NCBI GenBank assembly: GCA_965197885.1
Contig: OZ240231.1
Span: 845,501-909,500, forward strand
From: Thermodesulfobacteriota bacterium
GTDB lineage: Bacteria > Desulfobacterota_D > UBA1144 > Nemesobacterales > Nemesobacteraceae
Reading direction: 5' to 3'
Length of the DNA stretch: 64,000 nucleotides
Each line of letters begins with the position of its first letter. The stretch's first letter is position 1. Positions 6,032-48,010 of this stretch are shown piece after piece. Under the pieces are notes generated by a model. It searched no databases. It had not been told where the DNA came from and saw only the letters and a program-made list of their open reading frames with translations. The translations under genes and the position numbers were made by a program.

Positions 6032-6052
6032 TAAGGCCTGTCCTCCTGCGCA

Positions 6053-6166: not shown

Positions 6167-6185
6167 CTTGCTTCCGCCCCTGTCT

Positions 6186-6407: not shown

Positions 6408-6419
6408 TACCTGTTGTTC

Positions 6420-7184
6420 CTAGTGAATCCTTTCGGTAAGAATCTCAGGGCCGTTATCCGTGAGAGCCACCGTATGCTCAAAATGAGCGGAAAGTTTACC
6501 ATCATAAGTAACCGCCGTCCACCCATCTTTAAGTATCTTTGTTTTCTCCGACCCCTCGTTCACCATGGGTTCTATGGCCATTACCATTCCAGAGCGAAGC
6601 TTTACTCCTCTTCCCGCGCCATTGCGGGGAATAAAATTTGGCACCTGTGGTTCCTCATGGAGTTCCCGGCCTATGCCGTGGCCGACAAAATCCCTGACTA
6701 TCGAAAAACCCTCGCTTTCAACGTAAGTCTGTATCTCTTTTGATATGTCCATAACTCTGTTTGAGCCTGTCACCATATCTATCCCCTTGTAGAGGGAATT
6801 TCTGGTAACCCGCAGCAGCCTCTGCGCAACGGGCCGGATCTCACCAATTGCGACCGTTATTGCCGAGTCGGCGTAATAACCGTCGAGCACCACTCCGAAA
6901 TCTATTCCCACTATGTCTCCATCCCTAAGCACTTTTTTCTTCGAGGGAATACCGTGCACTACCTCTTCGTTAAGCGCAAAGCACACCGATGCGGGGTAAT
7001 TCGCATAACCCTTAAAAGCGGCTTTAAAGCCTCCCGCCGCGCACATTCTCTCCGCGATCTCATTAAGCTCCCAAGTGGTCACTCCTTCCTTTGCCTCTTC
7101 TTCAAGTCTCTTGAGCACTTCGGAAACCACCCTGCCAGCAGCCCTCATACGTTTGAGCTCTTCTTTGTTTTTCAAGCGAATCAT
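6420..7184 (-). CDS. map: type I methionine aminopeptidase
   Basis: 254 aa. Pita-bread fold metal-ligand motifs (HGIP, FVGHGIG, VMAIEPMVN). Confidence 0.95.
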   Translation of the reverse strand: MIRLKNKEELKRMRAAGRVVSEVLKRLEEEAKEGVTTWELNEIAERMCAAGGFKAAFKGYANYPASVCFALNEEVVHGIPSKKKVLRDGDIVGIDFGVVLDGYYADSAITVAIGEIRPVAQRLLRVTRNSLYKGIDMVTGSNRVMDISKEIQTYVESEGFSIVRDFVGHGIGRELHEEPQVPNFIPRNGAGRGVKLRSGMVMAIEPMVNEGSEKTKILKDGWTAVTYDGKLSAHFEHTVALTDNGPEILTERIH

Positions 7185-7750
7185 TACTGCAACTGTTTCA
7201 GCACGCCGTCTACTCTCTCGGCGATATCCGATATCTCTCCCACTCCTTCGACCGTACGCAGGACACCGGCCTTTCCGTAAAAATCCTTAAGAGGAGAGGT
7301 CTGATCCTTGTAAACTCTCAGCCTATTCTTTATCACATCCTCCGTGTCGTCCTGCCTGCCCTCTATTTCCTGGCGTTTAATTATTCGCTGCACAACCTCT
7401 TCGTCGGGAACTTCAAGAAAAATAACCGCGTTAACGCCAATTCCGGCAGCGGAGAGAATACTGTCAAGAGATCTTGCCTGCTCCAGAGTCCTCGGGAAAC
7501 CGTCAAGCATAAAACCTCCCTCGCCAAGCCCGGAGATCTTCAGTCTTATTATTTCCGTCACGACTTCATCGGGTACGAGTTCTCCTTTGTCCATAAACGA
7601 TTTTGCGTAAAGTCCAATCTCGGTCTCATTTTTTATGGCTTCACGCAGCACGTTTCCAGTTGATATATGCTCAACTCCGTATTTCTCCCTTATGAAATCA
7701 GCCTGCGTTCCCTTTCCCGCCCCGGGCGGCCCGAACAGTATCAGTCTCAT
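7184..7750 (-). CDS. adk: adenylate kinase (short form, no zinc lid)
   Basis: MRLILFGPPGAGKGTQA P-loop. 188 aa. Sits at the expected spc-operon position after secY. Confidence 0.95.
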   Translation of the reverse strand: MRLILFGPPGAGKGTQADFIREKYGVEHISTGNVLREAIKNETEIGLYAKSFMDKGELVPDEVVTEIIRLKISGLGEGGFMLDGFPRTLEQARSLDSILSAAGIGVNAVIFLEVPDEEVVQRIIKRQEIEGRQDDTEDVIKNRLRVYKDQTSPLKDFYGKAGVLRTVEGVGEISDIAERVDGVLKQLQ

Positions 7751-7773
7751 AGTCTCCGGTATCCTCCTTTTCC

Positions 7774-9102
7774 TCAGAACCTGTATCTCTGCGGTTCTTT
7801 CATACCCCTCTTCTTCATAAAGCCTTCATAACTGTGAGTTATCAGAAAAGACTCGATCTGCTGCATGAAATCAAGCGTTACCCCTATTACGATCAGAAGC
7901 GACACGCCTCCGAAGTAAAACGGCAGATTAAAAGGTTCTCTCTCAAGAAACACCGGCAGGACGCAGACCGCCGCCACGTATATAGCCCCTATGAACGTAA
8001 TTTTCCCGAGCACACTGCCTATGTATTCCGATGTCTTTCTGCCCGGCCTTATCCCCGGTATGTTTCCGCCGTTTTTCCTCAGGTTGTCCGAGAGATCGTC
8101 CGGGTCGTATATGATTGAAGTATAGAAAAAAGCGAAGAATATTATGAGTATGGCAAAAATAAGGTTGTATACGAACACGTTCTGAAACACAAGGTCTGAG
8201 AAGCTGCGAAGAGCTGGAAGATCGGCAAACGTAACGATCGTAGCGGGGAAAATAAGGAGCGAAGAGGCGAAAATCGGCGGGATGACGCCCGAAGGATTAG
8301 TTTTAAGCGGCAGGTGAGAACTCTGCCCTCCCATAACCTTCCTTCCCACGACTCTCCTGGGGTACTGAACCGGTATTTTTCTGTAGGAACGCTCAAAGAA
8401 AACTATAAGACCCATAAGAAGCCCTAGGAAAATAAAAATAAGAAGAACTCCGAGAATAGAAATGTTCCCGGTGCCGACAAGCCTCGAGAGGTTCCAGAAC
8501 GCCCCTGGAATACTGGCGATTATCGACGCGGCGATAAGAAGAGACATCCCGTTTCCGATTCCGTTCTCGGTTATCTGCTCTCCAAGCCACATAACGAAGA
8601 GTCCTCCCGCGGTAAGGGTAAGAACAGCTGTGATCTTGAACATCAGTCCGGGGTCCATAACGGCGCTTGCAACGGTCGCTGCGCCTACTCCTCCACGCTC
8701 AAGGGTAACGGCCAGCATAAAGCCCTGAATGAGACATATAAGAACGGTACCGTACCTTGTGTACTGATTTATTCTTCTCCTTCCGGCATCACCCTCCTTC
8801 TGCATTGCTTCAAGTGAAGGGAAGGCTTTTACCAGAAGCGACATGATGATTGACGCAGTAATATAAGGCATCACTCCCAAGGCGAAAATCGACGCCTGTT
8901 CAAGCGCTCCCCCTGAGAACATGTTGAGTATGTCGAAGATCGTGCCGCGGGTCTGCTCGAACATCTTGGCGATCTGATCCGGGTCGATTCCAGGAATCGG
9001 AACGAAAACACCCGCCCTGTAAACAACAAGCATCGCGGCCGTAAAAAGAAGCTTCCTGTTAAGTTCGGGAATTCTGGGAAGTGACGCGACGTTACTGCTC
9101 AT
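7774..9102 (-). CDS. secY: preprotein translocase subunit SecY
   Basis: 442 aa. 10 predicted TM segments. Conserved SecY motifs (GIMPYITASII, GTGNISILG). Confidence 0.97.
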   Translation of the reverse strand: MSSNVASLPRIPELNRKLLFTAAMLVVYRAGVFVPIPGIDPDQIAKMFEQTRGTIFDILNMFSGGALEQASIFALGVMPYITASIIMSLLVKAFPSLEAMQKEGDAGRRRINQYTRYGTVLICLIQGFMLAVTLERGGVGAATVASAVMDPGLMFKITAVLTLTAGGLFVMWLGEQITENGIGNGMSLLIAASIIASIPGAFWNLSRLVGTGNISILGVLLIFIFLGLLMGLIVFFERSYRKIPVQYPRRVVGRKVMGGQSSHLPLKTNPSGVIPPIFASSLLIFPATIVTFADLPALRSFSDLVFQNVFVYNLIFAILIIFFAFFYTSIIYDPDDLSDNLRKNGGNIPGIRPGRKTSEYIGSVLGKITFIGAIYVAAVCVLPVFLEREPFNLPFYFGGVSLLIVIGVTLDFMQQIESFLITHSYEGFMKKRGMKEPQRYRF

Positions 9103-9542
9103 ACTATTTCCACTTTGCCTCCAGCGTCGCTTATCTTGCGCGCGGCCACCTCGCTGCAGGCATTAACCGTTATGGAAAGCGGCGCAGTGACCTGCCCGGT
9201 AGCCAAAAGCTTTACGGGCTTCTTGCCGCTCACTATTCCAGCCTCGGCAAGCGCCTGGATCGTCACCGATCCCGCGTCCGTGAAGCGCTCAAGATCCTTT
9301 AAGTTCACTATGTCGTACTGTTTTTTGAATATGTTCGTAAAACCCCTCTTCGGGCTTCTCATTTTGAGTGGAGTCTGACCGCCTTCAAACCACCGGGATA
9401 CCCCTCCCCCTGAACGGGACCCCTGGCCCTTATGCCCCCTTCCGCTGGTCTTCCCCTGAGAACCAGCGCCTCTTCCTACCCTTTTTCTTTTTGCCTTCGA
9501 TCCCTTAGTTGGTGAAAGTTCGTTTAACATTTTCCGCTCCAC
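9099..9542 (-). CDS. rplO: 50S ribosomal protein L15
   Basis: 147 aa. Gly/Arg-rich N-terminus KRVGRGAGSQGKTSGRGHKGQ. Start overlaps the secY stop. Confidence 0.95.
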   Translation of the reverse strand: MERKMLNELSPTKGSKAKRKRVGRGAGSQGKTSGRGHKGQGSRSGGGVSRWFEGGQTPLKMRSPKRGFTNIFKKQYDIVNLKDLERFTDAGSVTIQALAEAGIVSGKKPVKLLATGQVTAPLSITVNACSEVAARKISDAGGKVEIV

Positions 9543-10151: not shown

Positions 10152-10491
10152 GCGACTTTATCCTTCCGTGGTAAGCGTAGCCCCCTCTGTCAAAACGCAC
10201 CTTGGTTATACCCTTCTCAACGGCCATCTCTCCGAGATGCTTTCCAACCTCTTTAGCAACCTCGGTTTTCTTCATATTCTCCGCAGAAAGCCTCTTTTTC
10301 GTCTCAGAAAACATTGTCGACGCCTGAAGAAGGGTGACTTCCGCAGTATCGTCTATCAGCTGGGCGTATATATGCTTTGCCGAACGGAAAACGGAAACCC
10401 TCGGCACATCCGAGGTACCGCTTATCTTCTTCCTGACAGTCGTGTGTCTTCTTTTACGCGCCAAATTTCTACTTTTCTTCTTTATCATCAC
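10114..10491 (-). CDS. rplR: 50S ribosomal protein L18
   Basis: 125 aa. Contains RKRRHTTVRKKISGTSDVPRVSVFRSAKHIYAQLIDD. Confidence 0.95.
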   Translation of the reverse strand: MMIKKKSRNLARKRRHTTVRKKISGTSDVPRVSVFRSAKHIYAQLIDDTAEVTLLQASTMFSETKKRLSAENMKKTEVAKEVGKHLGEMAVEKGITKVRFDRGGYAYHGRIKSLADGVREAGVEF

Positions 10492-11036
10492 TTAGCCGCT
10501 CCAGCTTTTCCTGGTTTAAGCCTCAACTTCTCATCCTCGTAACGAACACCTTTACCCTTATATGAATCAGGTGGTCTTACCTTTCTTATGCGTGCCGCGG
10601 TCTCCCCCACAAGCTGCTTGTCAATTCCGTGGAGAGAAAGCAGGGTGCCCCGTTCCTCCACAGTCGCCTCTATACCCTTGGGAAGGGGGAAATCAACCGG
10701 ATGAGAGTAACCGAGTGTAAGTCTGAGTTCCGTTTTTCCCACAAGATCCGCCTTGTAACCCGTACCGGTTATGCGAAGGACCTTTTTAAATCCTTCACTA
10801 ACCCCTATTACGGAATTGTTAACTAGGCTTCGCGTAAGACCGTGAAAAGACTTTATTCTTTTCTCGTCGCTCTGTCTGGAGATAACCACAGTTCCATCCT
10901 CAAGCGCAGCTTTTATTCCCTCGGGTACGGGAACTTCTAGGCTCCCTTTAGGCCCTTTGATTTCGATCGCTCCCTGCTTGGGCATCGCCGTTACTCCGTC
11001 GGGAATAACTACCGGTTTTATTCCTATTCTTGACAT
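10488..11036 (-). CDS. rplF: 50S ribosomal protein L6 (start taken at internal MSRIGIKPV)
   Basis: Canonical uL6 N-terminus MSRIGIKPVVIP is at residue 14 of the longer ORF. This start removes the overlap with rpsH. Confidence 0.9.
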   Translation of the reverse strand: MSRIGIKPVVIPDGVTAMPKQGAIEIKGPKGSLEVPVPEGIKAALEDGTVVISRQSDEKRIKSFHGLTRSLVNNSVIGVSEGFKKVLRITGTGYKADLVGKTELRLTLGYSHPVDFPLPKGIEATVEERGTLLSLHGIDKQLVGETAARIRKVRPPDSYKGKGVRYEDEKLRLKPGKAGAAK

Positions 11037-11046
11037 CCGTTTGTCC

Positions 11047-11439
11047 TCAGACCACCGTGCAGAGAATCTCCCCACCTATCTTTTTGTTCCTTGCGGCAAC
11101 CCCGGTCATTATTCCGTTTGAAGTTGAAAGTATTGAAATTCCCATTCCTCCCCTGACCCTTGGAATATCATCTTTGCCCACGTAAACCCTTCTCGATGGT
11201 TTGCTTATTCTCTTTATCTCCTCTACGGCAGCCTTGCCGTCAGGACCGTATTTCAGCTTGATTGTTATGGTTTTCTTTACCCCTTCTTCAGTGACCTTGT
11301 AACTCTCCACGTAGCCTTCCTCGGTAAGAACCTTAGCGATCTCGCCTTTTATAACCGAACCGGGAATCTCGACATGGCCGTGACCCGCCATGAAGGCATT
11401 CCTCACCCTGGTTAACATATCTGCAATCGGATCCGTCAT
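11047..11439 (-). CDS. rpsH: 30S ribosomal protein S8
   Basis: MTDPIADMLTRVRNA N-terminus. 130 aa. Confidence 0.97.
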   Translation of the reverse strand: MTDPIADMLTRVRNAFMAGHGHVEIPGSVIKGEIAKVLTEEGYVESYKVTEEGVKKTITIKLKYGPDGKAAVEEIKRISKPSRRVYVGKDDIPRVRGGMGISILSTSNGIMTGVAARNKKIGGEILCTVV

Positions 11440-11460
11440 TTTTTCTCCAAAATATGTTTC

Positions 11461-11646
11461 TTAAAAACTTGCCTTTCTAACGCCCGGAAGATGTCCCCTG
11501 CTGGCAAGAGACCTGAAACAGACCCTGCAGATACCGAATTTTCTCATGAAACCTCTCGGCCGTCCGCAAAGCCCGCAACGGTTAACCCCACGCACGCGAA
11601 ACTTTGGCTTTCTCTTCGCTTTCTCAAGTAACGCTTTTCTTGCCAT
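11461..11646 (-). CDS. rpsZ: 30S ribosomal protein S14 type Z (zinc-binding, 61 aa)
   Basis: 61 aa with a CGLCGRPRG...CRVCFR four-Cys motif. Sits between rplE and rpsH. Confidence 0.95.
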
Positions 11647-11658
11647 AATCCCTCTCTC

Positions 11659-12213
11659 CTAATTATTCACAAACGGCACTCCGAGACGGCTGAGAAGCTC
11701 CATGGCCTCAGTGTCCGTTTTTGAAGTCGTAATCAGACTTACGTTCATTCCCTTGTTGTACTGAACCTTGCTGTAATCTATTTCAGGAAAAACCAGATGC
11801 TCCCTTATCCCCAGAGTATAATTACCCGAACCGTCAAAAGACCGCGGTGAGAGACCCTTAAAATCCCTGACCCTTGGAAGAGCGAGATTCACCAAACGGT
11901 CAAAAAACTCATACATCATCTCCCCCCGAAGCGTAACCATGCAGCCTATTGGCTGGCCTTCTCTGAGTTTGAAACCCGCAACTGACTTGCGCGCCTTTGT
12001 AATCACCGGCCTCTGTCCCGTTATGTCCGCCAGTTCCGAGGCAGCGTTGTCTATTACCTTTGTCTGTCTCCCCGCTTCACTGAGCCTCCCAAGCCCCATG
12101 TTCACCACGATTTTCTCAAGCTTCGGAACCTGCATAACGTTTCCGTAGGAGAACTTTTCAATCAGCGCGGGTATGACCTCGCGCATATACAGAGTCTTTA
12201 TTCTCGGAATCAT
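11659..12213 (-). CDS. rplE: 50S ribosomal protein L5
   Basis: 184 aa. Contains [18 protein letters not shown]. Confidence 0.97.
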
Positions 12214-12217
12214 TTCC

Positions 12218-12547
12218 TCAGATTTCCTTTCCAGTTTTTCTGTTGTATCTCACTTTTCCACCGTCCTCGCCGGTTCTGTGCCCAATCTTTACCGGTGTTC
12301 CACTCTCAGAATCGTACAGCATCAGGTTTGAGACATGGATTCCAGCCTCTTTCTCAATGATGCCACCGCCAGGGTTTTTCTGCGTCGGACGGCTGTGTCT
12401 CTTTATGATATTGAGCTTTTCCACGAAGGCCTTTTCGGCACCCCTGTCAATTCTGAGCACTTTGCCGGTCTTCCCCTTTTCCTTGCCAGCAACTACGTAG
12501 ACCGTATCCCCGGCCCTTATATTAAACTTTCTCTTCCCAGTGGACAT
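12218..12547 (-). CDS. rplX: 50S ribosomal protein L24
   Basis: 109 aa. KOW motif [21 protein letters not shown]. Confidence 0.95.
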
Positions 12548-12549
12548 GT

Positions 12550-12918
12550 TCAGACAACCTCCGGGGCAAGCGAGATGATTTTCATAAAACCCTTGAGCCT
12601 CAGTTCACGAGCTATCGGCCCGAAAACTCTCGTGCCTATGGGTTCGTTTTCCTTGTCTATTATAACGGCGGCGTTATTATCAAAGCGCACATAGGTGCCA
12701 TCGGGCCTTCTCTGTTCCTTTCTCACCCTGACTATTACCGCCTTGTATATATTGCCCTTTTCCACCTTGGACTTCGGAATGGCCTGCTTGACTGAAACTA
12801 CAACCACATCTCCAAGCCGCGCATATTTTCTTCCCGACCCACCCAGGACCTTTATGCAGAACAGCTTTTTGGCCCCTGTGTTATCCGCCGAGTCCAGATA
12901 TGTGCTTGACTGAATCAT
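12550..12918 (-). CDS. rplN: 50S ribosomal protein L14
   Basis: [28 protein letters not shown]. 122 aa. Confidence 0.97.
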
Positions 12919-12965
12919 TTATTTTCTTGTTTTCTCCCGTCGTCCGCGGAATCAAAAACCCTGCC

Positions 12966-13226
12966 TTATGCGCTTGCGACCTGAGTGACCACCTTGCTTA
13001 GTCTCCACCTTTTGGTCTTGCTGTGGGGCCTTGACTCCATTATTTCCACCTTGTCTCCGATGTTGCATTCGTTGCGCTCGTCATGGACCTTAAATAGCCT
13101 GCTGACCCTTATCTGCTTTTTGTACCGACCGTGACTCTTTGTCCGCTGTACTTCTACAACCGCAGTCTTGTCCATTTTGTTACCTACCACAACCCCCGTT
13201 TTCGTCTTTAACTTTCCTCTTTCCAT
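12966..13226 (-). CDS. rpsQ: 30S ribosomal protein S17
   Basis: 86 aa. Contains KTGVVVGNKMDKTAVVEVQR. Confidence 0.95.
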   Translation of the reverse strand: MERGKLKTKTGVVVGNKMDKTAVVEVQRTKSHGRYKKQIRVSRLFKVHDERNECNIGDKVEIMESRPHSKTKRWRLSKVVTQVASA

Positions 13227-13230
13227 AGAA

Positions 13231-13437
13231 TCAATTCTCCGAGGCGATATCCCGCTGTTTTGTTATGGTAAGTATCCTCGCAATCTCCCTTTTTAGCTGT
13301 TTTATCCTCGCGTTGTTCGGGTTCTGCCCGGTAGCAACCTGTATTCTGACATTGAAAAGCTCTTCGATCACATCACGGTGGCGCTTGCGCAGTTCCTCGG
13401 GCGTGAGGTTTCTGAGTTCTTCTGCATTTGTTGCCAT
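13231..13437 (-). CDS. rpmC: 50S ribosomal protein L29
   Basis: 68 aa. Contains ELRNLTPEELRKRHRDVIEELFNVRIQ. Confidence 0.93.
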   Translation of the reverse strand: MATNAEELRNLTPEELRKRHRDVIEELFNVRIQVATGQNPNNARIKQLKREIARILTITKQRDIASEN

Positions 13438-13859
13438 CAGATAAACTCCTGCTCGCTTCTGGTTACTATCCTAGTTCTAAGAGGAAGCTTATAGGAAGCA
13501 AGCCTTAAGGCTGAGCGTGCAAGTTCTTCACTTACTCCCGATATTTCGTAAAGAAACTGTCCTCTTTTTACCGGCGCCACGTAACCGTCTACATCCCCCT
13601 TGCCCTTTCCCATCCTGGTCTCGGCAGGTTTTTTGGTAACGGGTTTATAGGGAAATATTCTTATCCAGAGGTGCGCTCCTCTTTTCACGTGTCTTGTAAT
13701 CGCAATACGAGCAGCTTCTATCTGCCTTGAGGTGATCATCCCGTTCTCCACGGTCTGAAGCGCAAGATCACCGAAGGCAAACTTCGTCCCCCGGGTTGCA
13801 GCTCCTCTGTTCCTTCCCTTGAACTGTTTTCTGTACTTTGTCTTTTTAGGCTGAAGCAT
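13437..13859 (-). CDS. rplP: 50S ribosomal protein L16
   Basis: [17 protein letters not shown]-terminus. 140 aa. Confidence 0.97.
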
Positions 13860-14559
13860 CGGTATCTATATTCTCAGGGGCCTTGTTCGCCCTCCCCTTT
13901 ACCTTTTTCTGTATTATCTCGCCTTTGAATATCCAGACCTTTACACCTATTACTCCGTATGTAGTCGACGCTTCGGCAACCCCGTAGTCGAGGTCTGCGC
14001 GGAGCGTTGCCAATGGCACTCTTCCTTCCCTGTACCACTCCCTTCTCGCTATTTCGGCTCCGCCGAGACGCCCGGAGACCATAACTTTTATCCCGAGAAC
14101 CCCAGCTCGAATGGAGGAGGAAAGCACCCTTTTCATGGCCCTTCTGTACGCAACCCTTCTTTCAAGCTGAAGGGCAAGGTTTTCCGAGACGAGCTGCGCG
14201 TCAGTTTCGGGCCTCTTTACTTCCCTTATATCAAGAAATATGCCTTTCCCGGTCATCCCCTGGAGTTTTTTCTTCAGTTGCTCTATCTCCTGGCCTTTCC
14301 TTCCTATGATGATCCCGGGCCTTGCCGCGTACACCAAAATCCTGACCTTGTCCGCCGCGGCCCTCTCAATCTCAATGTTCGAGATAGCCGCCTGATAAAA
14401 GGTCTTCTTTATGTAGTTGCGAATTTCTATATCCTCTTTGAGCAAGGATCTGTACATCTGTTTTTCGGCAAACCACCTGGAGTCCCACGACCTGGTTATT
14501 CCAATGCGAAATCCTATAGGATTAATTTTCTGGCCCAATTCAGAATCCCCTCTGTTCAA
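13846..14559 (-). CDS. rpsC: 30S ribosomal protein S3
   Basis: 237 aa. KH domain, [17 protein letters not shown]. Confidence 0.97.
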
Positions 14560-14878
14560 GTATTATCGTTATGTGACTCATACTGCTTTTACGGGCAAAA
14601 GCCCTTCCCATCGCTCTGGCCCGAAAACGTTTCAGTGTTGGGCCCTGCGTTGCATAGATTTCCTTTATGTAAAGGGCATCTATATCGCTGTATCCTTTTT
14701 CAGAGGCGTTGGCAACAGCCGACTTCAGCAGCTTCGAAATCAGCGGTGAGACCCTCTTGCGGGCAGAAAGAAGAATCGATGAAGCTTCCTCAACACCCTT
14801 GCCTCTTACGAGGTCAAGCACCACTCTGGCCTTCTTCGGCGATACTCTAGCATATTTATGTACTGCTTTAGAAACCAT
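14540..14878 (-). CDS. rplV: 50S ribosomal protein L22
   Basis: 112 aa. Contains [19 protein letters not shown]. Confidence 0.95.
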
Positions 14879-14898
14879 TTGTTATCTCTCTGTTATTA

Positions 14899-15177
14899 CT
14901 ATCTCTTTTTGGCTTTCCTGTCACCCGAGTGACCATGATAAGTCCTTGTGGGAGAAAACTCGCCCAGTTTATGCCCAACCATCTGTTCGGATACGAATAC
15001 GGGGACAAATCTCTTTCCGTTGTAAACCGCGAAAGTCATTCCTATCATCTCTGGTATTATCATTGAGGCTCTTGACCAGGTCTTGATAATTCTCTGACTT
15101 CCGGAACTCTGCGCCTGCTCAACTTTCTTCATAAGTTTTTCGTGTACGTACAGTCCCTTTTTACTTGATCTTGCCAT
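14899..15177 (-). CDS. rpsS: 30S ribosomal protein S19
   Basis: 92 aa. [15 protein letters not shown] and [13 protein letters not shown]. Confidence 0.97.
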
Positions 15178-36647: not shown

Positions 36648-37568
36648 ATGTCTGTAAATCTAATCGTCGCGGTTACAGATAACAATTGGTTTGAGCATCT
36701 GCGGCAGAGACCCTCCCTAACCGAAGTTAATTTCTGGAAACCATCGGCCAAGACGCGTTTCAGGGCATTGGAACCTGGTGAACTAATTCTCTTCAAACTC
36801 CATTCTCCATACAACTCCATAGCCGGCGGAGGCGTTTTCACCCGAGAGATTTTTATGCCGTGCAGTGTGGCCTGGGATGTGTTTGGTGAAGCCAACGGCA
36901 CCGCATCTCTCGATGAGTTGCGTTCCACAATCGCTAGATATCACAAGGTGGATCCGGTGAAACAAAATGATTTTCAGATAGGTTGCCGGATACTAACCCA
37001 GCCGTTTTTCCTGCCCGAGGATGAATGGATTCCTATTCCAGAAAGCTGGACTCCTAATATCGTAAGGTATAAAAGATATTCCACCGAGCAGTCTGAAGGT
37101 CTTAAACTCTGGAAAGCAGTAAGCAAACAATTGGGTGTTCTCCACCCCGATGAAAAAAACCCGGCGGAGCGATTCGGCAGACCATATCTGATTCAACCCC
37201 GCCTAGGTCAGGAAGCATTTCGACATGTCGTAATTGACGCCTATGGGCGTCGCTGTGCTGTCACGCAAGAGAGAACTCTTCCAGCTCTCGATGCGGCTCA
37301 TATTCGCCCTTACAGCGAGGGAGGAGAACATAAGGTATCAAACGGTCTTCTTCTGCGACGTGATATTCACAGCTTGTTTGATTCAGGCTACGTGACGGTA
37401 ACCACAGATCTTAGGTTTGAGGTTAGCAAGAAGATCAGGGAAGAATTTGAAAATGGACGTGACTATTACGAACTTCACGGCAACAAAGTCCACGTTCCAG
37501 AAAAATCCTTGTTCATTCCCGAGCAATCGATCCTTGAATGGCATAATGAAAACCGTTTTCTGGGTTAA
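36648..37568 (+). CDS. HNH_2-type endonuclease with N-terminal PUA-like/EVE-type domain (putative restriction-type nuclease)
   Basis: 306 aa. C-terminal AAHIRPYSEGGEHKVSNGLLLRRDIHSLFDSGYVTV matches the HNH_2 motif (AHIxP..NGLxL...H..FD.G). The 160-aa N-terminal domain is beta-rich. Confidence 0.65.
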   Translation: MSVNLIVAVTDNNWFEHLRQRPSLTEVNFWKPSAKTRFRALEPGELILFKLHSPYNSIAGGGVFTREIFMPCSVAWDVFGEANGTASLDELRSTIARYHKVDPVKQNDFQIGCRILTQPFFLPEDEWIPIPESWTPNIVRYKRYSTEQSEGLKLWKAVSKQLGVLHPDEKNPAERFGRPYLIQPRLGQEAFRHVVIDAYGRRCAVTQERTLPALDAAHIRPYSEGGEHKVSNGLLLRRDIHSLFDSGYVTVTTDLRFEVSKKIREEFENGRDYYELHGNKVHVPEKSLFIPEQSILEWHNENRFLG

Positions 37569-41776: not shown

Positions 41777-42016
41777 ATGGAAATGAGTCGAAGCAAAGAT
41801 ACATCACATCCAATTACTCACTGGTTCAGAAACGACCTCAGACTCTCGGATAATCCGGCGCTCGCAGAGGCAGCGAAATTCACTCGACCCGTAGTGCCGG
41901 TTTACATACTTGAAGACTCGGGGATTTCTTTAGGAAATACATGCCCTTTTCCTATTGTAGATCATATGAATGCTCGAAACCGTGCTCTGGAAATGTTCAA
42001 ACAACTGAGATGTTAA
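41777..42016 (+). pseudogene. phr: remnant of a deoxyribodipyrimidine photolyase/cryptochrome gene (N-terminal ~45 codons only, then divergent tail and stop)
   Basis: ITHWFRNDLRLSDNPALAEAAKFTRPVVPVYILED matches the photolyase N-terminal alpha/beta-domain motif (WFRxDLRLxDNxAL...V.PV.I.D). The ORF is 79 aa against ~470 aa for intact enzymes. Confidence 0.65.
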
Positions 42017-42167: not shown

Positions 42168-42195
42168 ATAAAAAAGCCCCCGAATGCGAGGGCTT
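42168..42195 (-). terminator. rho-independent terminator of tracrRNA (8-bp GC-rich stem, CAUU loop, U6 tail)
   Basis: Plus strand has ttataaaaaagcccccgaatgcgagggctt. Only the minus-strand reading has a U-tract. Confidence 0.7.
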
Positions 42196-42285
42196 GGTTC
42201 TCCTTGGAGATTACCTACGAAGCATTTGCTTCTTGTTATGAATAGCAAATTTCGTGGCCTATTCAGTCAGTTATAAACTTTCTGT
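42168..42285 (-). ncRNA. tracrRNA: tracrRNA for the type II-C CRISPR-Cas9 system
   Basis: Anti-repeat at 42233-42284 is complementary, with a 9-nt bulge and a G:U pair, to the minus-strand CRISPR repeat. Downstream on the minus strand come a GAAGCAAAUGCUUC hairpin (42219-42232) and a UCUCCAAGGAGA hairpin, then terminator hairpin AGCCCUCGCAUUCGGGGGCU + U6 (42168-42195). Confidence 0.8.
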
Positions 42286-42290
42286 GATAT

Positions 42291-42318
42291 ATTATACGAC
42301 TTAGATTAGAAAAAGCAA
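42291..42318 (-). promoter_or_regulatory. sigma70-type promoter for tracrRNA (-10 TATAAT 42291-42296, -35 TTGCTT 42313-42318, 16-nt spacer), inside the divergent cas9/tracr control region
   Basis: Minus strand reads TTGCTTtttctaatctaagtcgTATAATatatcac. Predicted TSS ~42284, a few nt before the anti-repeat. Confidence 0.55.
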
Positions 42319-42347: not shown

Positions 42348-45300
42348 ATGAAGACTAAAGGATACGAATTCGGAGAATACTCAATAGGTTTGGATGTAGG
42401 AACAAATTCGATTGGCTGGAGCGTGATAAAAGAACAAAGCGGCAAACCCCAAGAATTTGTTGATTGCGGGAGCCGTATATTTGTCCGCTCGGTTGAAGAC
42501 AAATCCCCTACTCCGAAAAACAGGAAACGAAGGGAATCACGCCTTCAGAGAAGACAAATACAGCGTCGCAGCAGACGCAAAAACCGCCTCAGGAACTACC
42601 TGATTCTAAAAGGCTTTCTCCCTGAAGTACTAAAAAACAATCCAACTCCTGAGGAAGAACTGAACAAACTTGGAGACCCCTACATTATAAGAGCGAAAGC
42701 ACTGGATGAAGAACTGACTCCTTATGAATTTGGTCGCGCCATACTTCACCTAGGAACGAGAAGAGGGTTTCTGAGCAATCGCAAAACTTCGTTCGGTGAT
42801 CTAGGGAATGATATGAACGCTCGTGAGATACTCGAGAAGGAGGACGAAAGCACGAATGCAAAAGACAAAGAAGAGGGAAAACTCAAAGAAGAAATTGAAA
42901 AACTCAGAGAGAACATAGCCAAAGGCGGCGCGCGCACCTTGGGAGAATACCTTGCTGGGCTTCCGCGCAAGCGAAACAGAGGAGACTTTCATGATCGTCA
43001 TACCGACCGCAGGATGTACAACGAAGAGTTCTCCGAAATATGGAAAAAGCAGTCAGGCTATAACCCCCGACTCCATGATGAGAAAACAAGGAATGAACTC
43101 GAAAAGATCATCTTTTCTCAAAAACCTCTTAAACTAAAGCCGGACCGTGTGGGACGCTGTTCCCTTGAACCTAATCTGTCGCGGACAAGGCAAGGACGTC
43201 TTGAGTTCCAGCGTTTTCGCTACTGGCAGGATATAAATAACCTCTCTTACTATGACCCTGAAACCGGCGAAACGGGAATAGAATTATCAGAGGAGCAAAG
43301 AAAGAAACTCGCCGAAACCTTGGAAACAACAAGAGAGCTTACATGGGCCAAAATCAGGGCCCTGTTGGGATTAAACAAGAAAACGAGTTTCAACCTCCAA
43401 AAAGTTGAAGGCAAGAAAAAAGGTTTGAAAGGAAACCGTACTGCTCACGATATAGACGAGATCATTGGAGACAAGTGGAATTCCCTTAATGAGTCGGAAC
43501 AAGGCTTGCTGGTTGAGGATATCATCTCCTATACATCAAAGAAGGGACTGAAAAAACGTCTCACCAATCACTGGAATTTCTCCGAAGAGGAAGCAACTAG
43601 GCTCGCTGTGATGGAATTGGAAGAAGATCACGCAAGTCTCTCGCTAAAAGCAATAAGAAAAATCCTTCCCCACATGCAAGAAGGGAGAAAGTATAGCTAT
43701 AATCCGGATGATGCAACACAAGATGGCGCAATACAAGCCGCGGGGTACAAGGTTGAACCACCAGAGAGAGGGAATCTCGATATTCTTTCATCTCCACCTT
43801 GGATTCCTAATCCAATAGTTCAGAAAGCCCTTTATGAAATCCGCCGCGTTGTTAATGCGATTATCAGAAAGTACGGAAAGCCATCTGCGATAAGAATAGA
43901 AATGGCCCGTGATCTGGAGATGAACACAAAGAGATATAAGCAGTTTCTCGCGAGACAGAGTGAAAACACAAAAGCAAATCAAGAGGCGGAAGAACAATAT
44001 AGCGTTATCCGGGATAAAAATCCTCATTTGAACCTTCGCAGAAATATAAGCTATCAAGACAAGCTGAAATATAGGCTTTGGAAGGAAAGCGGAAGAAGAT
44101 GTGTTTACAGCGGAAAAAGTATAGGTATGACTGAGCTTTTTACTCATGCGACAGAAGTTGATCATATACTCCCTTACAAAAGTACTCTTGATAATTCATA
44201 CATGAACAAAGTCATTTGTCTTTCCAAAGAGAACAAGGAAAAAAGAGATCGAACTCCCTGGGAAGCGTTCGGCAACACATCCAGATGGGAAGAAATTCTG
44301 ATAATATCAAAGGATTTTCCAGAACCGAAAAGAAAGAGAATTTTAGCCAAAGAACTCCCCGATGATTTCATAAGCAATCAGTTAAATGACACACGTTACA
44401 TATCAAGAGAAACAGCAAAGTATCTAAGGAAACTGGGTTGTGATATAACTTTTACTAAAGGGGGTGTGACAAGCTGGCTACGTCATCAGTGGGGACTCAA
44501 CAGCCTGCTGGGAGGGAGTGAGGAAAAGAGCAGGAACGACCACAGACATCATGCTATTGACGCAACGGTGATTGCCCTTACAAATCGCAGTCTTTACCAG
44601 AAAATCGTTCATTTGGCTTCTGAATCTGAAGATGGTTCCGTATCACCGGAACATGGAATGGAAGTTCCTACACAGATTCCTGAACTTCGTGACGACCTAT
44701 CCGAACGCTTAGATAAATTGATAGTATCGCACTCTACTAACAGGAAACTGGCAGGAGCATTTCACGAAGAAACAGCTTACGGAATAAGAAGAGGGACTGA
44801 CGGAAAGCTTGGAGTTGTAGTCAGGAAAACGCTTACTAGCATGACAGACAGAGATAAAAGAAATATTGTCTGTCCGATAATCAAAAAAGCGGTTGAACTG
44901 TACGTATGGGAACGAGGTGGAAAAATAAAAGAAGCGATGAAGCGGTTACAGGAAGAACCTTTATTGCATCCAAGAACGGGAGATAAGATCCGACGGGTAC
45001 GCGTATGGGTATCAGAGATGCTGAATAGAGATTCCTATTGGGAGCACATAGCTCCGTGGAATAAAGATAAAGTTTTGCGCATTTTACCATATGGAAATAA
45101 TCACCATGTAGAAATATTAAGAAATCGTGAGAATGGAAAATATGGAGCTAAATTCGTAACTACCATGGAAGCCGCAAGAAGGGAAAGAACACTAAAACAA
45201 CCGATTATACAGACAGACCATGGAGAAGATTGGGAATATATAACTTATCTATGTATTAATGATACCGTGAGTATAGAGGAAAACGGAAAAAGGAATTCCT

Positions 45301-45494
45301 ATCGGATTCAAGTACTTGACCCAAACCAAAAAAGAGTAGTTTTAAGGCTTCATACAGCTGCAACATTGGAAAACAGTAACGAGAGAAGACTGAGAACCAT
45401 TTCAGTATTAATGAGAGATTTAGAAATGAGAAAAGAATCGATAGATGTGCTGGGATGTTCTTCTATCTCTAATAAAAGTGGAATGAATGATTAA
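42348..45494 (+). CDS. cas9: CRISPR-associated endonuclease Cas9, type II-C (1048 aa)
   Basis: RuvC-I YSIGLDVGTNSIGWSVI (D16). Arg-rich bridge helix RRESRLQRRQIQRRSRRKNRLRNYL. HNH VDHILPYKSTLDNSYMNKV (His ~606). RuvC-III HHAIDATVIALTN (~734-738). GAGGGG RBS 6 nt before the ATG. Confidence 0.95.
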   Translation: MKTKGYEFGEYSIGLDVGTNSIGWSVIKEQSGKPQEFVDCGSRIFVRSVEDKSPTPKNRKRRESRLQRRQIQRRSRRKNRLRNYLILKGFLPEVLKNNPTPEEELNKLGDPYIIRAKALDEELTPYEFGRAILHLGTRRGFLSNRKTSFGDLGNDMNAREILEKEDESTNAKDKEEGKLKEEIEKLRENIAKGGARTLGEYLAGLPRKRNRGDFHDRHTDRRMYNEEFSEIWKKQSGYNPRLHDEKTRNELEKIIFSQKPLKLKPDRVGRCSLEPNLSRTRQGRLEFQRFRYWQDINNLSYYDPETGETGIELSEEQRKKLAETLETTRELTWAKIRALLGLNKKTSFNLQKVEGKKKGLKGNRTAHDIDEIIGDKWNSLNESEQGLLVEDIISYTSKKGLKKRLTNHWNFSEEEATRLAVMELEEDHASLSLKAIRKILPHMQEGRKYSYNPDDATQDGAIQAAGYKVEPPERGNLDILSSPPWIPNPIVQKALYEIRRVVNAIIRKYGKPSAIRIEMARDLEMNTKRYKQFLARQSENTKANQEAEEQYSVIRDKNPHLNLRRNISYQDKLKYRLWKESGRRCVYSGKSIGMTELFTHATEVDHILPYKSTLDNSYMNKVICLSKENKEKRDRTPWEAFGNTSRWEEILIISKDFPEPKRKRILAKELPDDFISNQLNDTRYISRETAKYLRKLGCDITFTKGGVTSWLRHQWGLNSLLGGSEEKSRNDHRHHAIDATVIALTNRSLYQKIVHLASESEDGSVSPEHGMEVPTQIPELRDDLSERLDKLIVSHSTNRKLAGAFHEETAYGIRRGTDGKLGVVVRKTLTSMTDRDKRNIVCPIIKKAVELYVWERGGKIKEAMKRLQEEPLLHPRTGDKIRRVRVWVSEMLNRDSYWEHIAPWNKDKVLRILPYGNNHHVEILRNRENGKYGAKFVTTMEAARRERTLKQPIIQTDHGEDWEYITYLCINDTVSIEENGKRNSYRIQVLDPNQKRVVLRLHTAATLENSNERRLRTISVLMRDLEMRKESIDVLGCSSISNKSGMND

Positions 45495-46398
45495 ACGCAT
45501 TATTGAGGTCAGCAATCCGTCTTACCTTCATATGAGAGACTACCAAATGATTGTTGAGCAAAAGAAAAATGAGATCGAAAGGATCCCTATTGAAGATATG
45601 GGAGTCTTGATACTATCAAATCCGGCAATAACAATTTCCTCAAGCCTTATAGCATCTTGCCAGCAAAATAATTGCATTATTGTTTTCTGTGACGGCAAAC
45701 ATCTTCCTGTATCTATTCTCCTACCACTATCCGGGAACTCCATGCATAGTAAGATTTTAAATATTCAAACAGGCGTAAAAAAGCCGACAAAAAAACGCCT
45801 GTGGCAAAAAATAATAATCGCAAAAATAGAATCCCAAGCAAAAGTATTGCTCTCTTGCGGTAAAAATGCTTCCGCCCTTGAGTCAATGAAATCACGCGTG
45901 AAAAGCGGTGACCCAGATAATGTTGAGTCTCAAGCTTCAAGGGTTTACTGGCCTCTTATGTTTGGAAAGGATTTCAGGCGGGACCAGAAGGCTGAAGGCA
46001 CGAATTCTTTATTGAACTACGGATATGCTTTGCTGAGAGCCTCCGTTGCTCGTGCGATTTGTGGAACGGGGTTGCACCCCGCTTTAGGAATCCATCATCA
46101 CAATCAGTACAACCCGATGTGCTTAGCTGACGATCTTATGGAACCATTCAGACCTGTTGTTGACAGAAAAGTCTATAAACTATGGGAAAAAGAAATATTT
46201 GTCGTCAGCAAAAAAACAAAATCATTTTTGTTGTCCTTTTTAGCTGAGCCTTTGATATTCAGGGATAAGAAACTCCCGTTTATGGTAGCTTTGCAGTACA
46301 CCGCTACAAGCTTGAAGAAAGCTTTAACTGATGGACCGGAATCCTTAGAAATACCAAGGCTTGCAATCAAAGAACAACAGGAGATGTTTTTGATATAA
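45487..46398 (+). CDS. cas1: CRISPR-associated endonuclease Cas1 (type II)
   Basis: 303 aa. NSLLNYGYALLRASVARAICGTGLHPALGIHHHNQYNPMCLADDLMEPFRPVVD. ATG overlaps the cas9 stop by 8 nt. Confidence 0.93.
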   Translation: MIKRIIEVSNPSYLHMRDYQMIVEQKKNEIERIPIEDMGVLILSNPAITISSSLIASCQQNNCIIVFCDGKHLPVSILLPLSGNSMHSKILNIQTGVKKPTKKRLWQKIIIAKIESQAKVLLSCGKNASALESMKSRVKSGDPDNVESQASRVYWPLMFGKDFRRDQKAEGTNSLLNYGYALLRASVARAICGTGLHPALGIHHHNQYNPMCLADDLMEPFRPVVDRKVYKLWEKEIFVVSKKTKSFLLSFLAEPLIFRDKKLPFMVALQYTATSLKKALTDGPESLEIPRLAIKEQQEMFLI

Positions 46399-46400
46399 AA

Positions 46401-46730
46401 ATGATTTTCGGGGGATATAAAACTTTGTGGGTAATAGTAATGTTTGATCTGCCCACAGATACAAAGGCAGACAGACGCTCTTATACATTATTTCGCAAGT
46501 CTCTTCTTCAAGATGGCTTTTCTATGCTTCAGTTCTCCGTTTATATCAGACATTGCGCTAGTGACGAGAATGCATATGTACATTCGGGAAGAGTTCGTAA
46601 TGCTTTACCACCTAAAGGAGAAGTTAGAATCATTAATGTCACCGATAAGCAGTTTGAAAGAATGCAGGTTTTTTATGGAAAAAAACGAAAGAAAACTGAA
46701 AAGGCTCCCAAGCAAATATCTCTTTTTTAA
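46401..46730 (+). CDS. cas2: CRISPR-associated endoribonuclease Cas2
   Basis: 109 aa. VIVMFDLPTDTKADRRSYTLFRKSLLQDGFSMLQFSVY, a typical Cas2 ferredoxin-like core. Starts 2 nt after the cas1 stop. Confidence 0.9.
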   Translation: MIFGGYKTLWVIVMFDLPTDTKADRRSYTLFRKSLLQDGFSMLQFSVYIRHCASDENAYVHSGRVRNALPPKGEVRIINVTDKQFERMQVFYGKKRKKTEKAPKQISLF

Positions 46731-46780
46731 TATGCTTGGGAGCCTAAATCACCCGCCAACAAGGCACTTTGGCGTGAAGC

Positions 46781-48008
46781 ATTCTAACTGACTGAAAGGC
46801 CCCCGCTATTCACAACACGGAAGCCGAGATAGACTTCGAGCTTTTATTCTAACTGACTGAAAGGCCCCCGCTATTCACAACTGTTCCGCTGTCAGTAGTT
46901 TCCTTAGCTTATTCTAACTGACTGAAAGGCCCCCGCTATTCACAACTCTTTGTTTTATCGGATCCCAGAATCCCACATTCTAACTGACTGAAAGGCCCCC
47001 GCTATTCACAACGGTTATCGATCGGTCCAGGTGGACGATGGTATTCTAACTGACTGAAAGGCCCCCGCTATTCACAACCGTCAGGGCAGAGTCCTCAAGA
47101 ACTATCCATTCTAACTGACTGAAAGGCCCCCGCTATTCACAACTTACGCGTGGAGCATGATGCTGAAGATTCTATTCTAACTGACTGAAAGGCCCCCGCT
47201 ATTCACAACGCTTATAGATGTGGTTAATCCGGCTAACTCATCATTCTAACTGACTGAAAGGCCCCCGCTATTCACAACTATCACCCGGAGTTCCCCCTGT
47301 TTATCCATATTCTAACTGACTGAAAGGCCCCCGCTATTCACAACCGGTTCGGGCGGCAGAGATACGGAGGGGGATTCTAACTGACTGAAAGGCCCCCGCT
47401 ATTCACAACTTAGTATCGAATGATTGAAACTGAACCAAGATTCTAACTGACTGAAAGGCCCCCGCTATTCACAACAGAAAAGGGATAATCCTTATCATGC
47501 CATCGATTCTAACTGACTGAAAGGCCCCCGCTATTCACAACTGAATCTATACGATATTGTGATGGGTTCAAATTCTAACTGACTGAAAGGCCCCCGCTAT
47601 TCACAACAGAAAAGGGATAATCCTTATCATGCCATCGATTCTAACTGACTGAAAGGCCCCCGCTATTCACAACTGAATCTATACGATATTGTGATGGGTT
47701 CAAATTCTAACTGACTGAAAGGCCCCCCCACAACATTCACAACCCTTCTCGGTCCCGGTCCCGTGGCGGGTCCATCCTAACTGACTGAAAGGCCCCCGCT
47801 ATTCACAACCCGCGTGTATCTCTTCCAGAATCGCGCTTAATTCTAACTGACTGAAAGGCCCCCGCTATTCACAACACAGTATGCTTAGTTGCTTCGGGTG
47901 GGAAGGATTCTAACTGACTGAAAGGCCCCCGCTATTCACAACTATAGGCTTCGGATTCATCAACCTGGTCGAATTCTAACTGACTGAAAGGCCCCCGCTA
48001 TTCACAAC
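46781..48008 (-). CRISPR. CRISPR array: 19 direct repeats (36 bp; repeat 15 is a 40-bp variant, repeat 16 has one substitution), 18 spacers of 29-33 bp. Transcribed orientation inferred as minus strand.
   Basis: Plus-strand repeat ATTCTAACTGACTGAAAGGCCCCCGCTATTCACAAC at 46781, 46846, 46911, 46977, 47043, 47108, 47174, 47243, 47309, 47374, 47440, 47506, 47572, 47638, 47704(var), 47774(var), 47840, 47907 and 47973. Minus orientation begins GTTGTG like other II-C repeats and matches the tracr anti-repeat polarity. Confidence 0.97.
47476..47739. repeat. tandem duplication of a 132-bp block (spacer-repeat-spacer-repeat) inside the CRISPR array
   Basis: Spacers at 47476-47505 and 47608-47637 are identical (agaaaagggataatccttatcatgccatcg). 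Spacers at 47542-47571 and 47674-47703 are identical (tgaatctatacgatattgtgatgggttcaa). Confidence 0.9.
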
Positions 48009-48010
48009 GC

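Follow-up and report, generated by a model that had tools for sequence, protein, structure and literature searches.

Cme2Cas9, a compact type II-C protein of 1008 aa with the PAM NAGNGC, was described from the compost metagenome Ga0079224_100072790 and placed in clade IX (Gasiunas et al. 2020, PMC7606464). Its repeat begins with GUUGUGG. The II-C system of Neisseria meningitidis (Nme1Cas9 and Nme2Cas9; PDB 6jdq, 6kc8, 6jfu) has a cas9-cas1-cas2 gene set and 36-nt repeats with a GTTGT start and a -10-like TAnnnT end. Its crRNAs initiate at promoters within the repeats (PMC5965381), and in both the Nme and Cje systems the array runs against the direction of the cas operon (PMC3737331). Opposite-strand transcription from repeat-internal promoters is typical of the Nme and Cje systems but does not strictly define II-C. 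In II-A and II-C loci, the anti-repeat is mostly found 5' of cas9 (Chylinski et al. 2013, PMC3737331). ThermoCas9 and GeoCas9, of ~1080 aa, come from thermophilic Firmicutes.

The stretch of DNA analysed here (64,000 nt, hereafter the window) very probably carries, on a Candidatus Dadabacteria chromosome, a type II-C CRISPR-Cas9 immunity locus that is complete and looks functional (Table 1). Its sole novelty is an uncharacterised Cas9 ortholog; the locus is otherwise an ordinary type II-C system. The gene set and repeat form are those of N. meningitidis. As in the II-A system of S. pyogenes, the tracrRNA gene lies 5' of cas9 and is encoded on the other strand. That system differs from the window in having csn2, a 1368-aa Cas9 with a different REC lobe and PI domain, and an array co-directional with the cas operon.

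Table 1 Features of the CRISPR-Cas9 locus, in window coordinates or, for the two protein regions, Cas9 residues.
Feature	Position	Strand	Details
Predicted tracrRNA gene	42170-42285	-	~115 nt; conserved block in alignments A2, A4, A5
tracrRNA intrinsic terminator	42170-42195	-	9-bp GC-rich stem, 4-nt loop, U6
tracrRNA hairpin 2	42196-42215	-	GGU..UCUCC-AA-GGAGA.ACC; covariation
tracrRNA hairpin 1	42219-42232	-	GAAGC-AAAU-GCUUC; conserved CAUAACAAG linker on its 5' side
Anti-repeat	42235-42276	-	pairs with the 36-nt CRISPR repeat; internal asymmetric loop
tracrRNA -10 box	42291-42296	-	TATAAT; direct sequence reading
cas9	42348-45494	+	1048 aa, type II-C; ORF list and direct reading
Bridge helix	Cas9 residues ~58-82
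WED/PI region	Cas9 residues ~790-1048
cas9/cas1 overlap	45487-45494	+	8 nt, ATGATTAA; direct reading
cas1	45487-46398	+	303 aa, type II (NMENI) subtype; TIGR03639 293 bits, PF01867
cas2	46401-46730	+	109 aa; TIGR01573, PF09827
cas2-to-array stretch	46731-46780	no strand	50 nt; probable acquisition-side (leader-like) end
CRISPR array	46781-48008	-	19 repeats of 36 nt, 18 spacers of 29-33 nt

The gene content is that of subtype II-C: cas9, cas1 and cas2 only, with a Cas1 of the NMENI type that scores well above the TIGR03639 cut-off of 120 bits. Neither csn2 (II-A) nor cas4 (II-B) is present in the locus, where cas2 and the array are only 50 nt apart. The same order, cas9-cas1-cas2-array, was found in all loci with a detected array (27/27). 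A sequence-only reading had described an operon of overlapping or abutting genes, and the junctions bear this out to the base. The cas1 ATG (45487-45489) falls within the final codons of cas9 (...S G M N D stop), and the cas9 TAA is embedded in the Met-Ile-Lys codons of cas1. An earlier cas1 start is impossible because the preceding in-frame codon is TGA; the TIGR03639 alignment begins at Cas1 residue 3. Between the cas1 stop (46396-46398) and the cas2 ATG there are just 2 nt. A Shine-Dalgarno sequence, GAGGGG, is located 6 nt 5' of the cas9 ATG. With the two genes overlapping, there is indeed no space for a tracrRNA between cas9 and cas1. As a special trait, the overlap did not hold up: among 36 loci scored, 13 (the window included) have an 8-nt overlap, mostly ATGATTAA, and 8 more have a 4-nt ATGA or GTGA overlap. 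Other junctions in the clade are gaps of +22, +14 and +11.

The Cas9 profile TIGR01865 matched residues 11-1036 with 675 bits, and RuvC_III, HNH_4 and Cas9_a were detected by Pfam. The protein has the type II architecture, one large effector whose split RuvC-like domain holds an HNH insertion. The catalytic residues are D16, E518, H735 and D738 (RuvC) and D605, H606 and N629 (HNH). In 17 orthologs with 46-84% identity D16 is nearly invariant, and the other six are invariant. The catalytic motifs also align with those of ThermoCas9 and GeoCas9; the residues are intact. These two proteins (PDB 9ar4, 8uza, 8jtj) gave the best sequence matches among solved structures (E 2e-76 to 7e-75) and share the RuvC, bridge-helix, HNH and RuvC-III motifs; their repeat and tracrRNA sequences are unlike those of the window. 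Nme Cas9 is distant in sequence (E 1e-67).

The closest characterised ortholog that we found is Cme2Cas9: its first 399 aa share 43% identity with the window Cas9, a figure that applies to that part alone. Its start lies 11 residues later (Asp5). ThermoCas9 and GeoCas9 are much further away. The proposal of a new ortholog was upheld, with identity well below 80% to the characterised Cas9s compared (E 2e-76 for ThermoCas9/GeoCas9; the 399-aa comparison for Cme2Cas9). On the part compared, the window system is placed in the Cme2Cas9-like clade (clade IX): the Cas9 match to ThermoCas9/GeoCas9 and Nme1Cas9 is weaker than that to Cme2Cas9, and the tracrRNAs of the window and Cme2Cas9 align. The scaffolds of Cme2Cas9 and the window are alike throughout: CAUAACAAGAAG, hairpin 1, CUUCGCAGG, hairpin 2, ACC and terminator.

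Three peculiarities ascribed to the window Cas9 were only partly borne out. The bridge helix had been quoted correctly; it is not unusually Arg-dense, with 11/23 Arg residues vs 12/23 in the aligned ThermoCas9 segment (counted from the alignment). The RuvC-I Asp is residue 16 as quoted, but it does not follow a 10-aa N-terminal extension: Nme1Cas9 chain residues 10-746 align to query residues 10-758, at the same offset. The RuvC Asp of Nme1Cas9 is likewise D16. For the PI region, a lack of recognisable similarity holds for sequence, as phmmer left this region unaligned to solved Cas9s, but not for predicted fold. An AF2 model of the C-terminal region (pLDDT 81.9) was compared by Foldseek, and the top matches of its WED/PI part were Nme1, Nme2, Sa, Geo and Thermo Cas9 (~265-280 columns, E ~1e-10 to 1e-9, TM 0.56-0.64). 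Nme1Cas9 and Nme2Cas9 ranked first (TM 0.60-0.64, 15-17% PI identity); ThermoCas9 and GeoCas9 matched with E ~1e-9 and 20-22% identity. The modelled WED/PI fold is canonical despite its diverged sequence.

Upstream of cas9, the best local match to the reverse-complemented repeat outside the array is the anti-repeat. Its RNA would start 7-9 nt 3' of the -10 box and end in the U-run of the terminator, which a terminator scan placed on the minus strand from 42195 to 42174. A weak -35 (TTGCTT) is found 16 nt upstream of the -10 box, and the promoter is missing from the promoter-scan list because this -35 is poor. The -10 box keeps the TAnnnT form in three relatives (L081, L082 and L085). Cofolding of the tracrRNA with the crRNA repeat gave -71 kcal/mol and formed the anti-repeat duplex. 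In a covariation test on 20 tracrRNA sequences, 83% of cells were paired and 11 pairs had two-sided changes, a score that none of 500 shuffles reached. Hairpin 1 had such changes in 4/5 pairs (89.8% of cells paired), hairpin 2 in 4/7 pairs with 6-10 sequences each. A covariance model (R1) scored 110 bits at the window tracrRNA. In ~40 loci spread over many phyla, ~17 of them outside the model-building set, it gave one strong minus-strand match immediately 5' of cas9. A search of Rfam with the tracrRNA returned no matching family. The clade scaffold should be of use for ortholog mining, and it will not surprise specialists.

The position of the tracrRNA upstream and antisense had been read correctly, but "relocated" is the wrong word for a clade-wide position that is usual for II-A and II-C (PMC3737331). 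It is highly improbable that the overlap displaced the tracrRNA to an unusual antisense site and that the Cas9 is atypical in N-terminus, bridge helix and PI domain. Such a reading could draw on the nil intergenic space, on the upstream antisense location itself, and on the PI region that phmmer left unaligned. However, an upstream minus-strand tracrRNA accompanies every junction type (+22, +14, +11, -4 and -8), and upstream is the usual place for II-C anti-repeats. The Arg content is like that of ThermoCas9, Asp16 sits at the Nme1Cas9 offset, and the predicted PI fold is canonical. Nothing suggests that the overlap is the cause of the upstream position. The overlap, the upstream antisense tracrRNA, the Arg-rich bridge helix and Asp16 are common to a large environmental II-C clade. 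Still less probable is an array that shares plus-strand transcription with the cas operon, with a plus-strand partner RNA that begins with the anti-repeat and continues into cas9. Either strand pair would allow the anti-repeat to base-pair with the repeat, and the array directly 3' of cas2 could be reached by operon read-through. But a tracrRNA of that sense would have no 3' hairpins or terminator, while the covarying hairpins and the terminator are on the minus strand; conservation extends across the anti-repeat and on to the terminator, and is far lower on the cas9 side. The minus-sense repeat, GTTGTG...AAT, has the usual II-C form, and Cme2Cas9 was active in vitro with an sgRNA of exactly the minus-strand sense (PMC7606464).

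The array is therefore oriented on the minus strand, following the tracrRNA, and the crRNA-sense repeat is GTTGTGAATAGCGGGGGCCTTTCAGTCAGTTAGAAT. It ends at 48008, not at 48009 as first noted. Sixteen of the 18 spacers are unique, and the array contains a tandemly duplicated block, an aberrant 40-nt repeat (47704-47743) and a point-variant repeat (47774-47809). Since degenerate or aberrant repeats occur toward the opposite end, the cas2-proximal end is likely leader-like; in the relative L082, the repeat farthest from the cas genes carries 4 mismatches. Fully delimited repeats across these loci are 36 nt and end with CACAAC on the cas strand. In crRNA sense, they close with a TAnnnT hexamer throughout the clade (TAGAAT in the window). 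Spacers are not shared among relatives, which implies that turnover is ongoing. The sequence-only reading had proposed to predict the PAM from protospacer flanks. We attempted this, and no spacer tested matched the phages, plasmids, viral contigs or metagenome contigs searched; as no protospacers were found, there is no spacer-derived PAM. The Cme2Cas9 PAM is not transferable, because PI regions across the clade diverge faster than the remainder of Cas9.

That the system is decaying or idle, or its Cas9 regulatory, despite intact-looking genes is improbable, though somewhat less so than the two readings above. This view could invoke the unmatched spacers among the contigs tested, the tandem duplication and the 40-nt repeat, and two observations described below, the adjacent photolyase remnant and the split cas9 of a relative. 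Against it, none of the three cas genes is truncated, the catalytic residues are conserved, the promoter, pairing and terminator of the tracrRNA are intact, and the absence of spacers common to relatives implies turnover. For an uncultured marine lineage with thin coverage in virus databases, a lack of protospacer matches is to be expected.

A working type II-C system of this kind would operate as follows. If the Nme, Cje and Geo Cas9 systems are a guide, a single operon transcript would carry cas9-cas1-cas2, with translation of cas1 and cas2 proceeding by termination-reinitiation, at the ATGATTAA overlap for cas1 and across the 2-nt gap for cas2. Minus-strand transcription of the array would converge on the operon. 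The TAGAAT that closes each repeat on its 3' side resembles a -10 box, and transcription may begin there; such repeat-internal promoters are known in N. meningitidis (PMC5965381) and are proposed for the window from the sequence motif only. The crRNA would then consist of the spacer followed by GUUGUGAAUAGC..., paired with the tracrRNA anti-repeat, and RNase III dependence is presumed. Cas9 would bind this duplex and the 3' hairpins, read a PAM 3' of the protospacer with its WED/PI domain, and cut both DNA strands via HNH and RuvC. Cas1-Cas2 would insert spacers at the cas2-proximal array end. Speculatively, the facing -10 boxes of cas9 and tracrRNA (42285-42296) might link the expression of the two.

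The clade's Cas9s are ~1030-1050 aa, and Cme2Cas9 is its only characterised member that we could find. Its hosts include Dadabacteria, Methylococcales, Binatia, Dehalococcoidia, Elusimicrobia and other groups. The window adds a compact 1048-aa Cas9 with at most 43% identity to any characterised ortholog compared, for which the crRNA, tracrRNA and sgRNA sequences can now be specified with confidence. We suggest, tentatively, that this Dadabacteria Cas9 could have a PAM outside the editing toolbox, as a member of a large and barely explored environmental II-C clade. With its compact ~115-nt tracrRNA, it might perform well at low or moderate temperature.

The locus is flanked by genes for Era and a TraT-like lipoprotein, and its chromosomal site is the same in relatives. 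Other neighbours are a photolyase remnant, shortened by a deletion, and AspRS. The remnant points to some decay or rearrangement in the region; AspRS is 92% identical to a protein of a Candidatus Dadabacteria MAG. In one relative, L084, cas9 is split. The GC content of the cas genes is 41.5% vs 48% in the flanks, which is odd for a locus that appears vertically inherited.

The locus holds a type II-C CRISPR-Cas9 system that is both intact and conventional. The ORF table and direct reading confirmed the coordinates and gene calls of the sequence-only reading for cas9, cas1 and cas2. Judged by profile matches, the family assignments of the three predicted products are unambiguous: Cas9 matched TIGR01865 (675 bits, residues 11-1036) and the Pfam families RuvC_III, HNH_4 and Cas9_a, Cas1 matched the type II profile TIGR03639 (293 bits), and Cas2 was assigned by TIGR01573. 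The cas9 start is supported by a Shine-Dalgarno sequence, GAGGGG, that lies 6 nt before the ATG. The cas1 start is fixed by an in-frame TGA directly before its ATG and by the TIGR03639 alignment, which begins at residue 3. Neither csn2 nor cas4 was found at the locus, the neighbours being housekeeping genes, and gene content places it in subtype II-C.

Components of the CRISPR-Cas9 locus and its predicted tracrRNA, in window positions
Feature	Position	Strand	Description	Basis
cas9	42348-45494	+	1048 aa	ORF table, direct reading
cas1	45487-46398	+	303 aa	ORF table, direct reading
cas2	46401-46730	+	109 aa	ORF table, direct reading
CRISPR array	46781-48008	- (crRNA sense)	19 repeats (36 nt) and 18 spacers (29-33 nt; 16 unique)	
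TATAAT box	42296 to 42291	-	first in order on this strand	
Anti-repeat	42235-42276	-	follows TATAAT box	repeat search
Linker	between anti-repeat and hairpin 1	-	CAUAACAAG	direct reading, fold
Hairpin 1	after linker	-	GAAGC-AAAU-GCUUC	fold
Hairpin 2	between hairpin 1 and terminator	-		fold
Terminator hairpin	42195 to 42170	-	GC-rich, U6 run	terminator scan, fold

The predicted tracrRNA was found upstream of cas9 and antisense to it, as had been read from the sequence, with the anti-repeat search, the fold and the terminator in agreement. Its anti-repeat, 72 nt upstream of cas9, was the best match to the reverse-complemented repeat outside the array, and the tracrRNA:repeat cofold (-71 kcal/mol) had one internal loop. 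When 20 homologous regions were aligned, 83% of the cells paired and 11 of the 21 pairs had changed on both sides; the covariation score was reached by none of 500 shuffles. A covariance model built from these 20 RNAs proved specific for the scaffold and gave one strong minus-strand match upstream of cas9 in ~40 loci, ~17 of them outside the training set, with scores of ~31-133 bits, the weakest being marginal. Rfam had no match anywhere in the window, and the scaffold shared by this tracrRNA (42170-42285) and the ~40 loci could represent a new RNA family.

Production of crRNAs and tracrRNA from the plus strand was considered and rejected. In four Dadabacteria loci, conservation extended from the terminator to the anti-repeat and was much weaker on the cas9 side, and a plus-strand transcript has neither hairpins nor a terminator. 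Together these settle the tracrRNA on the minus strand, and the crRNAs would accordingly come from that strand as well. The tracrRNA had also been described as relocated, for want of space at the overlapping cas9/cas1 junction. That overlap is real: the genes share 8 nt (ATGATTAA), the cas1 ATG lying within ...GGA ATG AAT GAT TAA, and cas2 starts after a gap of 2 nt behind the cas1 stop. However, the upstream minus-strand position is general in the clade (~40 loci), where anti-repeats share that strand and precede cas9, at most ~110 nt from its start except in two loci. Because of this clade-wide position and the account of Chylinski et al. 2013 (PMC3737331), who place most II-A and II-C anti-repeats upstream of cas9, we conclude that the tracrRNA was not relocated here, and displacement by the overlap was discarded. 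The overlap itself is a clade trait. Among 36 loci scored at this junction, it was present, identical or in a close variant, in 13 (window included); 4-nt overlaps (ATGA/GTGA) were seen in eight, and most of the remainder had either an overlap of another length or a gap of 3-22 nt. The 8-nt form arises because Cas1 begins Met-Ile-Lys.

A plus-strand extended -10 element, TGaTATATT (42285-42293), overlaps the TATAAT box of the tracrRNA. The putative cas9 and tracrRNA promoters may stand face to face, competing or co-regulated.

The array begins 50 nt past cas2. [quoted passage not shown] The repeat reads GTTGTGAATAGCGGGGGCCTTTCAGTCAGTTAGAAT on the minus strand. All fully delimitable clade repeats were 36 nt long with CACAAC at the cas-strand end. 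In the crRNA sense, each window repeat ends in TAGAAT and every clade repeat in a TAnnnT hexamer; by analogy, this ending would fit repeat-internal promoters such as those of N. meningitidis (PMC5965381). Within 47476-47809, two spacer-repeat units (132 bp) occur twice in tandem, the spacers at 47476-47505 and 47542-47571 recurring at 47608-47637 and 47674-47703. The repeat that follows is an aberrant one of 40 nt (47704-47743) with CCACAAC in place of GCT, and in the repeat after it (47774-47809) the third base is changed from T to C.

No spacers were common to relatives among the fetched loci compared, which suggests spacer turnover. There was no self-targeting, none of the spacers having a target in the window or in any fetched locus. 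Prediction of the PAM from protospacer flanks, proposed by the sequence-only reading, yielded no PAM, as the phage, plasmid, IMG/VR and metagenome searches returned no targets. The whole array had one chance match (E = 1) to INPHARED phages and nothing in PLSDB plasmids; the 24-nt PAM-proximal ends of eight spacers had no match in IMG/VR, nor did one spacer in JGI metagenomes. The 20-nt seed of the cas2-nearest spacer had two metagenome matches, both due to chance because the other 9 nt agreed at only 0/9 and 1/9 positions. The 42-spacer array of a relative (L086) likewise gave only chance matches to phages.

Among Cas9s with solved structures, the best sequence matches were ThermoCas9/GeoCas9 (E 2e-76) and Nme1Cas9 (E 1e-67). 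Cme2Cas9, described by Gasiunas et al. 2020 (PMC7606464) as a 1008-aa clade IX protein from a compost metagenome with the PAM NAGNGC, had 43% identity to the window Cas9 over the part that could be compared, its 399 N-terminal residues. The scaffold seen in the window recurs in the Cme2Cas9 repeat (GUUGUGG...) and tracrRNA (...CCAUAACAAGAAGGUGAAACCUUCGCAGGAUAUCCCGAAAGGGUAAACC...). From the cofold and the Cme2Cas9 sgRNA we infer the sgRNA N22-24 + GUUGUGAAUAGCGGGGGCCUUUCAGUCAGUU-GAAA-AACUGACUGAAUAGGCCACGAAAUUUGCUAUUCAUAACAAGAAGCAAAUGCUUCGUAGGUAAUCUCCAAGGAGAACCAAGCCCUCGCAUUCGGGGGCUUUUUU. None of the characterised Cas9s compared exceeded 80% identity. By sequence comparison, the window Cas9 is classed as a new ortholog, as the earlier reading had proposed, in a clade with at least one active member. 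An exact-sequence look-up of it returned no record, and no paper joining Dadabacteria and Cas9 was found.

The features flagged as unusual in this protein proved common to the clade. The bridge helix, called unusually Arg-dense, has 11 arginines in 23 residues vs 12/23 in the aligned ThermoCas9 segment, and they are invariant across the clade. The supposed 10-aa N-terminal extension before Asp16 is not unusual, the Nme1Cas9 chain, whose RuvC Asp is D16, aligning at equal offset (query 10-758 vs chain 10-746). These comparisons argue against an unusual bridge helix or N-terminus. For the PAM-interacting (PI) domain, the claim of no recognisable similarity held for sequence but not for fold. No phmmer alignment to solved Cas9s continued past residue ~840. 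Within the clade, by contrast, residues 790-1048 were conserved, with 71-79% identity to close relatives and ~39% to the group at 46-48% overall. An AlphaFold2 model of this region (25 sequences, pLDDT 81.9) had top Foldseek matches in the PDB solely to Cas9 WED/PI regions (Nme1, Nme2, Sa, Geo, Thermo, Hpa and Bl Cas9; E 2e-10 to 1e-8, TM 0.5-0.64, ~255-285 alignment columns, 15-22% identity), which speaks against a novel PI fold. The modelled C-terminal fold is canonical, with divergence in sequence only. Such divergence is normal for PI domains. What remains is a compact uncharacterised Cas9 with a well-defined predicted guide RNA, in an under-sampled environmental clade.

The host is assigned to Candidatus Dadabacteria, its AspRS, encoded next to the locus, having 92% identity to a protein of a named MAG of that group. 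Cas9 homologs were abundant: one at 99% identity, many at 75-85%, two named Dadabacteria-lineage proteins at 57% (Ca. Mycalebacterium zealandia, Ca. Dadabacteria), and a large set at 46-48% from Methylococcales, Rhodocyclus and Desulfobulbaceae. The close relatives came from the encoding-contig search; a scan of genome contigs gave relatives at no more than 49% identity among the matches listed. The order cas9-cas1-cas2-array was kept in 27/27 loci with a detected array. Recent horizontal acquisition was weighed as the main explanation. The cas genes have 41.5% GC (42348-46730) vs ~48% in the flanking chromosome. However, five relatives have the locus in the same chromosomal position, where it follows Era (with an intact photolyase gene there in three), and Cas9 identity declines in step with that of AspRS: AspRS/Cas9 identities were 89/83%, 83/76% and 77/64% in the L084, L085 and L086 genomes, the pairing of the two proteins by genome being inferred. 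Synteny and parallel identity point to long residence of the locus despite its low GC, and recent acquisition was rejected.

A 79-aa ORF at 41777-42016 (+) is a photolyase gene remnant, a fusion of two segments that correspond to residues 1-46 and 443-482 (73% and 57% identity) in the 483-aa photolyase encoded on the related contig L082. The two segments meet at a repeated YILED(S)G motif, which suggests an internal deletion of ~1.2 kb by microhomology. The gene is intact in L085 (480 aa) and L086 (477 aa) and absent altogether from L081. Past the array, L082 carries DUF4276 and an AAA_15/AAA_21 ATPase (11928-13720, PARIS-like), L085 SIR2_2 and DUF87 (12515-15102), and L084 ThiF, Multi_ubiq and Prok-E2 (12198-14695). 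Unlike these, the window has no defence-like gene set downstream of the array; the site resembles a hotspot with variable defence genes. The L081 array (10448-14655) spans 4.2 kb with just 23 repeats and encloses two called genes of 219 and 603 aa (11442-13930) with no Pfam match. Either the array has received an insertion, or a cassette lies between two separate arrays. In L084, cas9 (6001-9131) is broken by a frameshift, giving overlapping ORFs of 972 and 80 aa; the gene is a pseudogene or the assembly is in error. In the window, a 306-aa protein encoded 5 kb before the CRISPR locus (36648-37568, +) has an HNH_2 endonuclease domain as its sole Pfam match; the corresponding neighbourhood in L081 and L082 carries MNT/HEPN toxin-antitoxin pairs.
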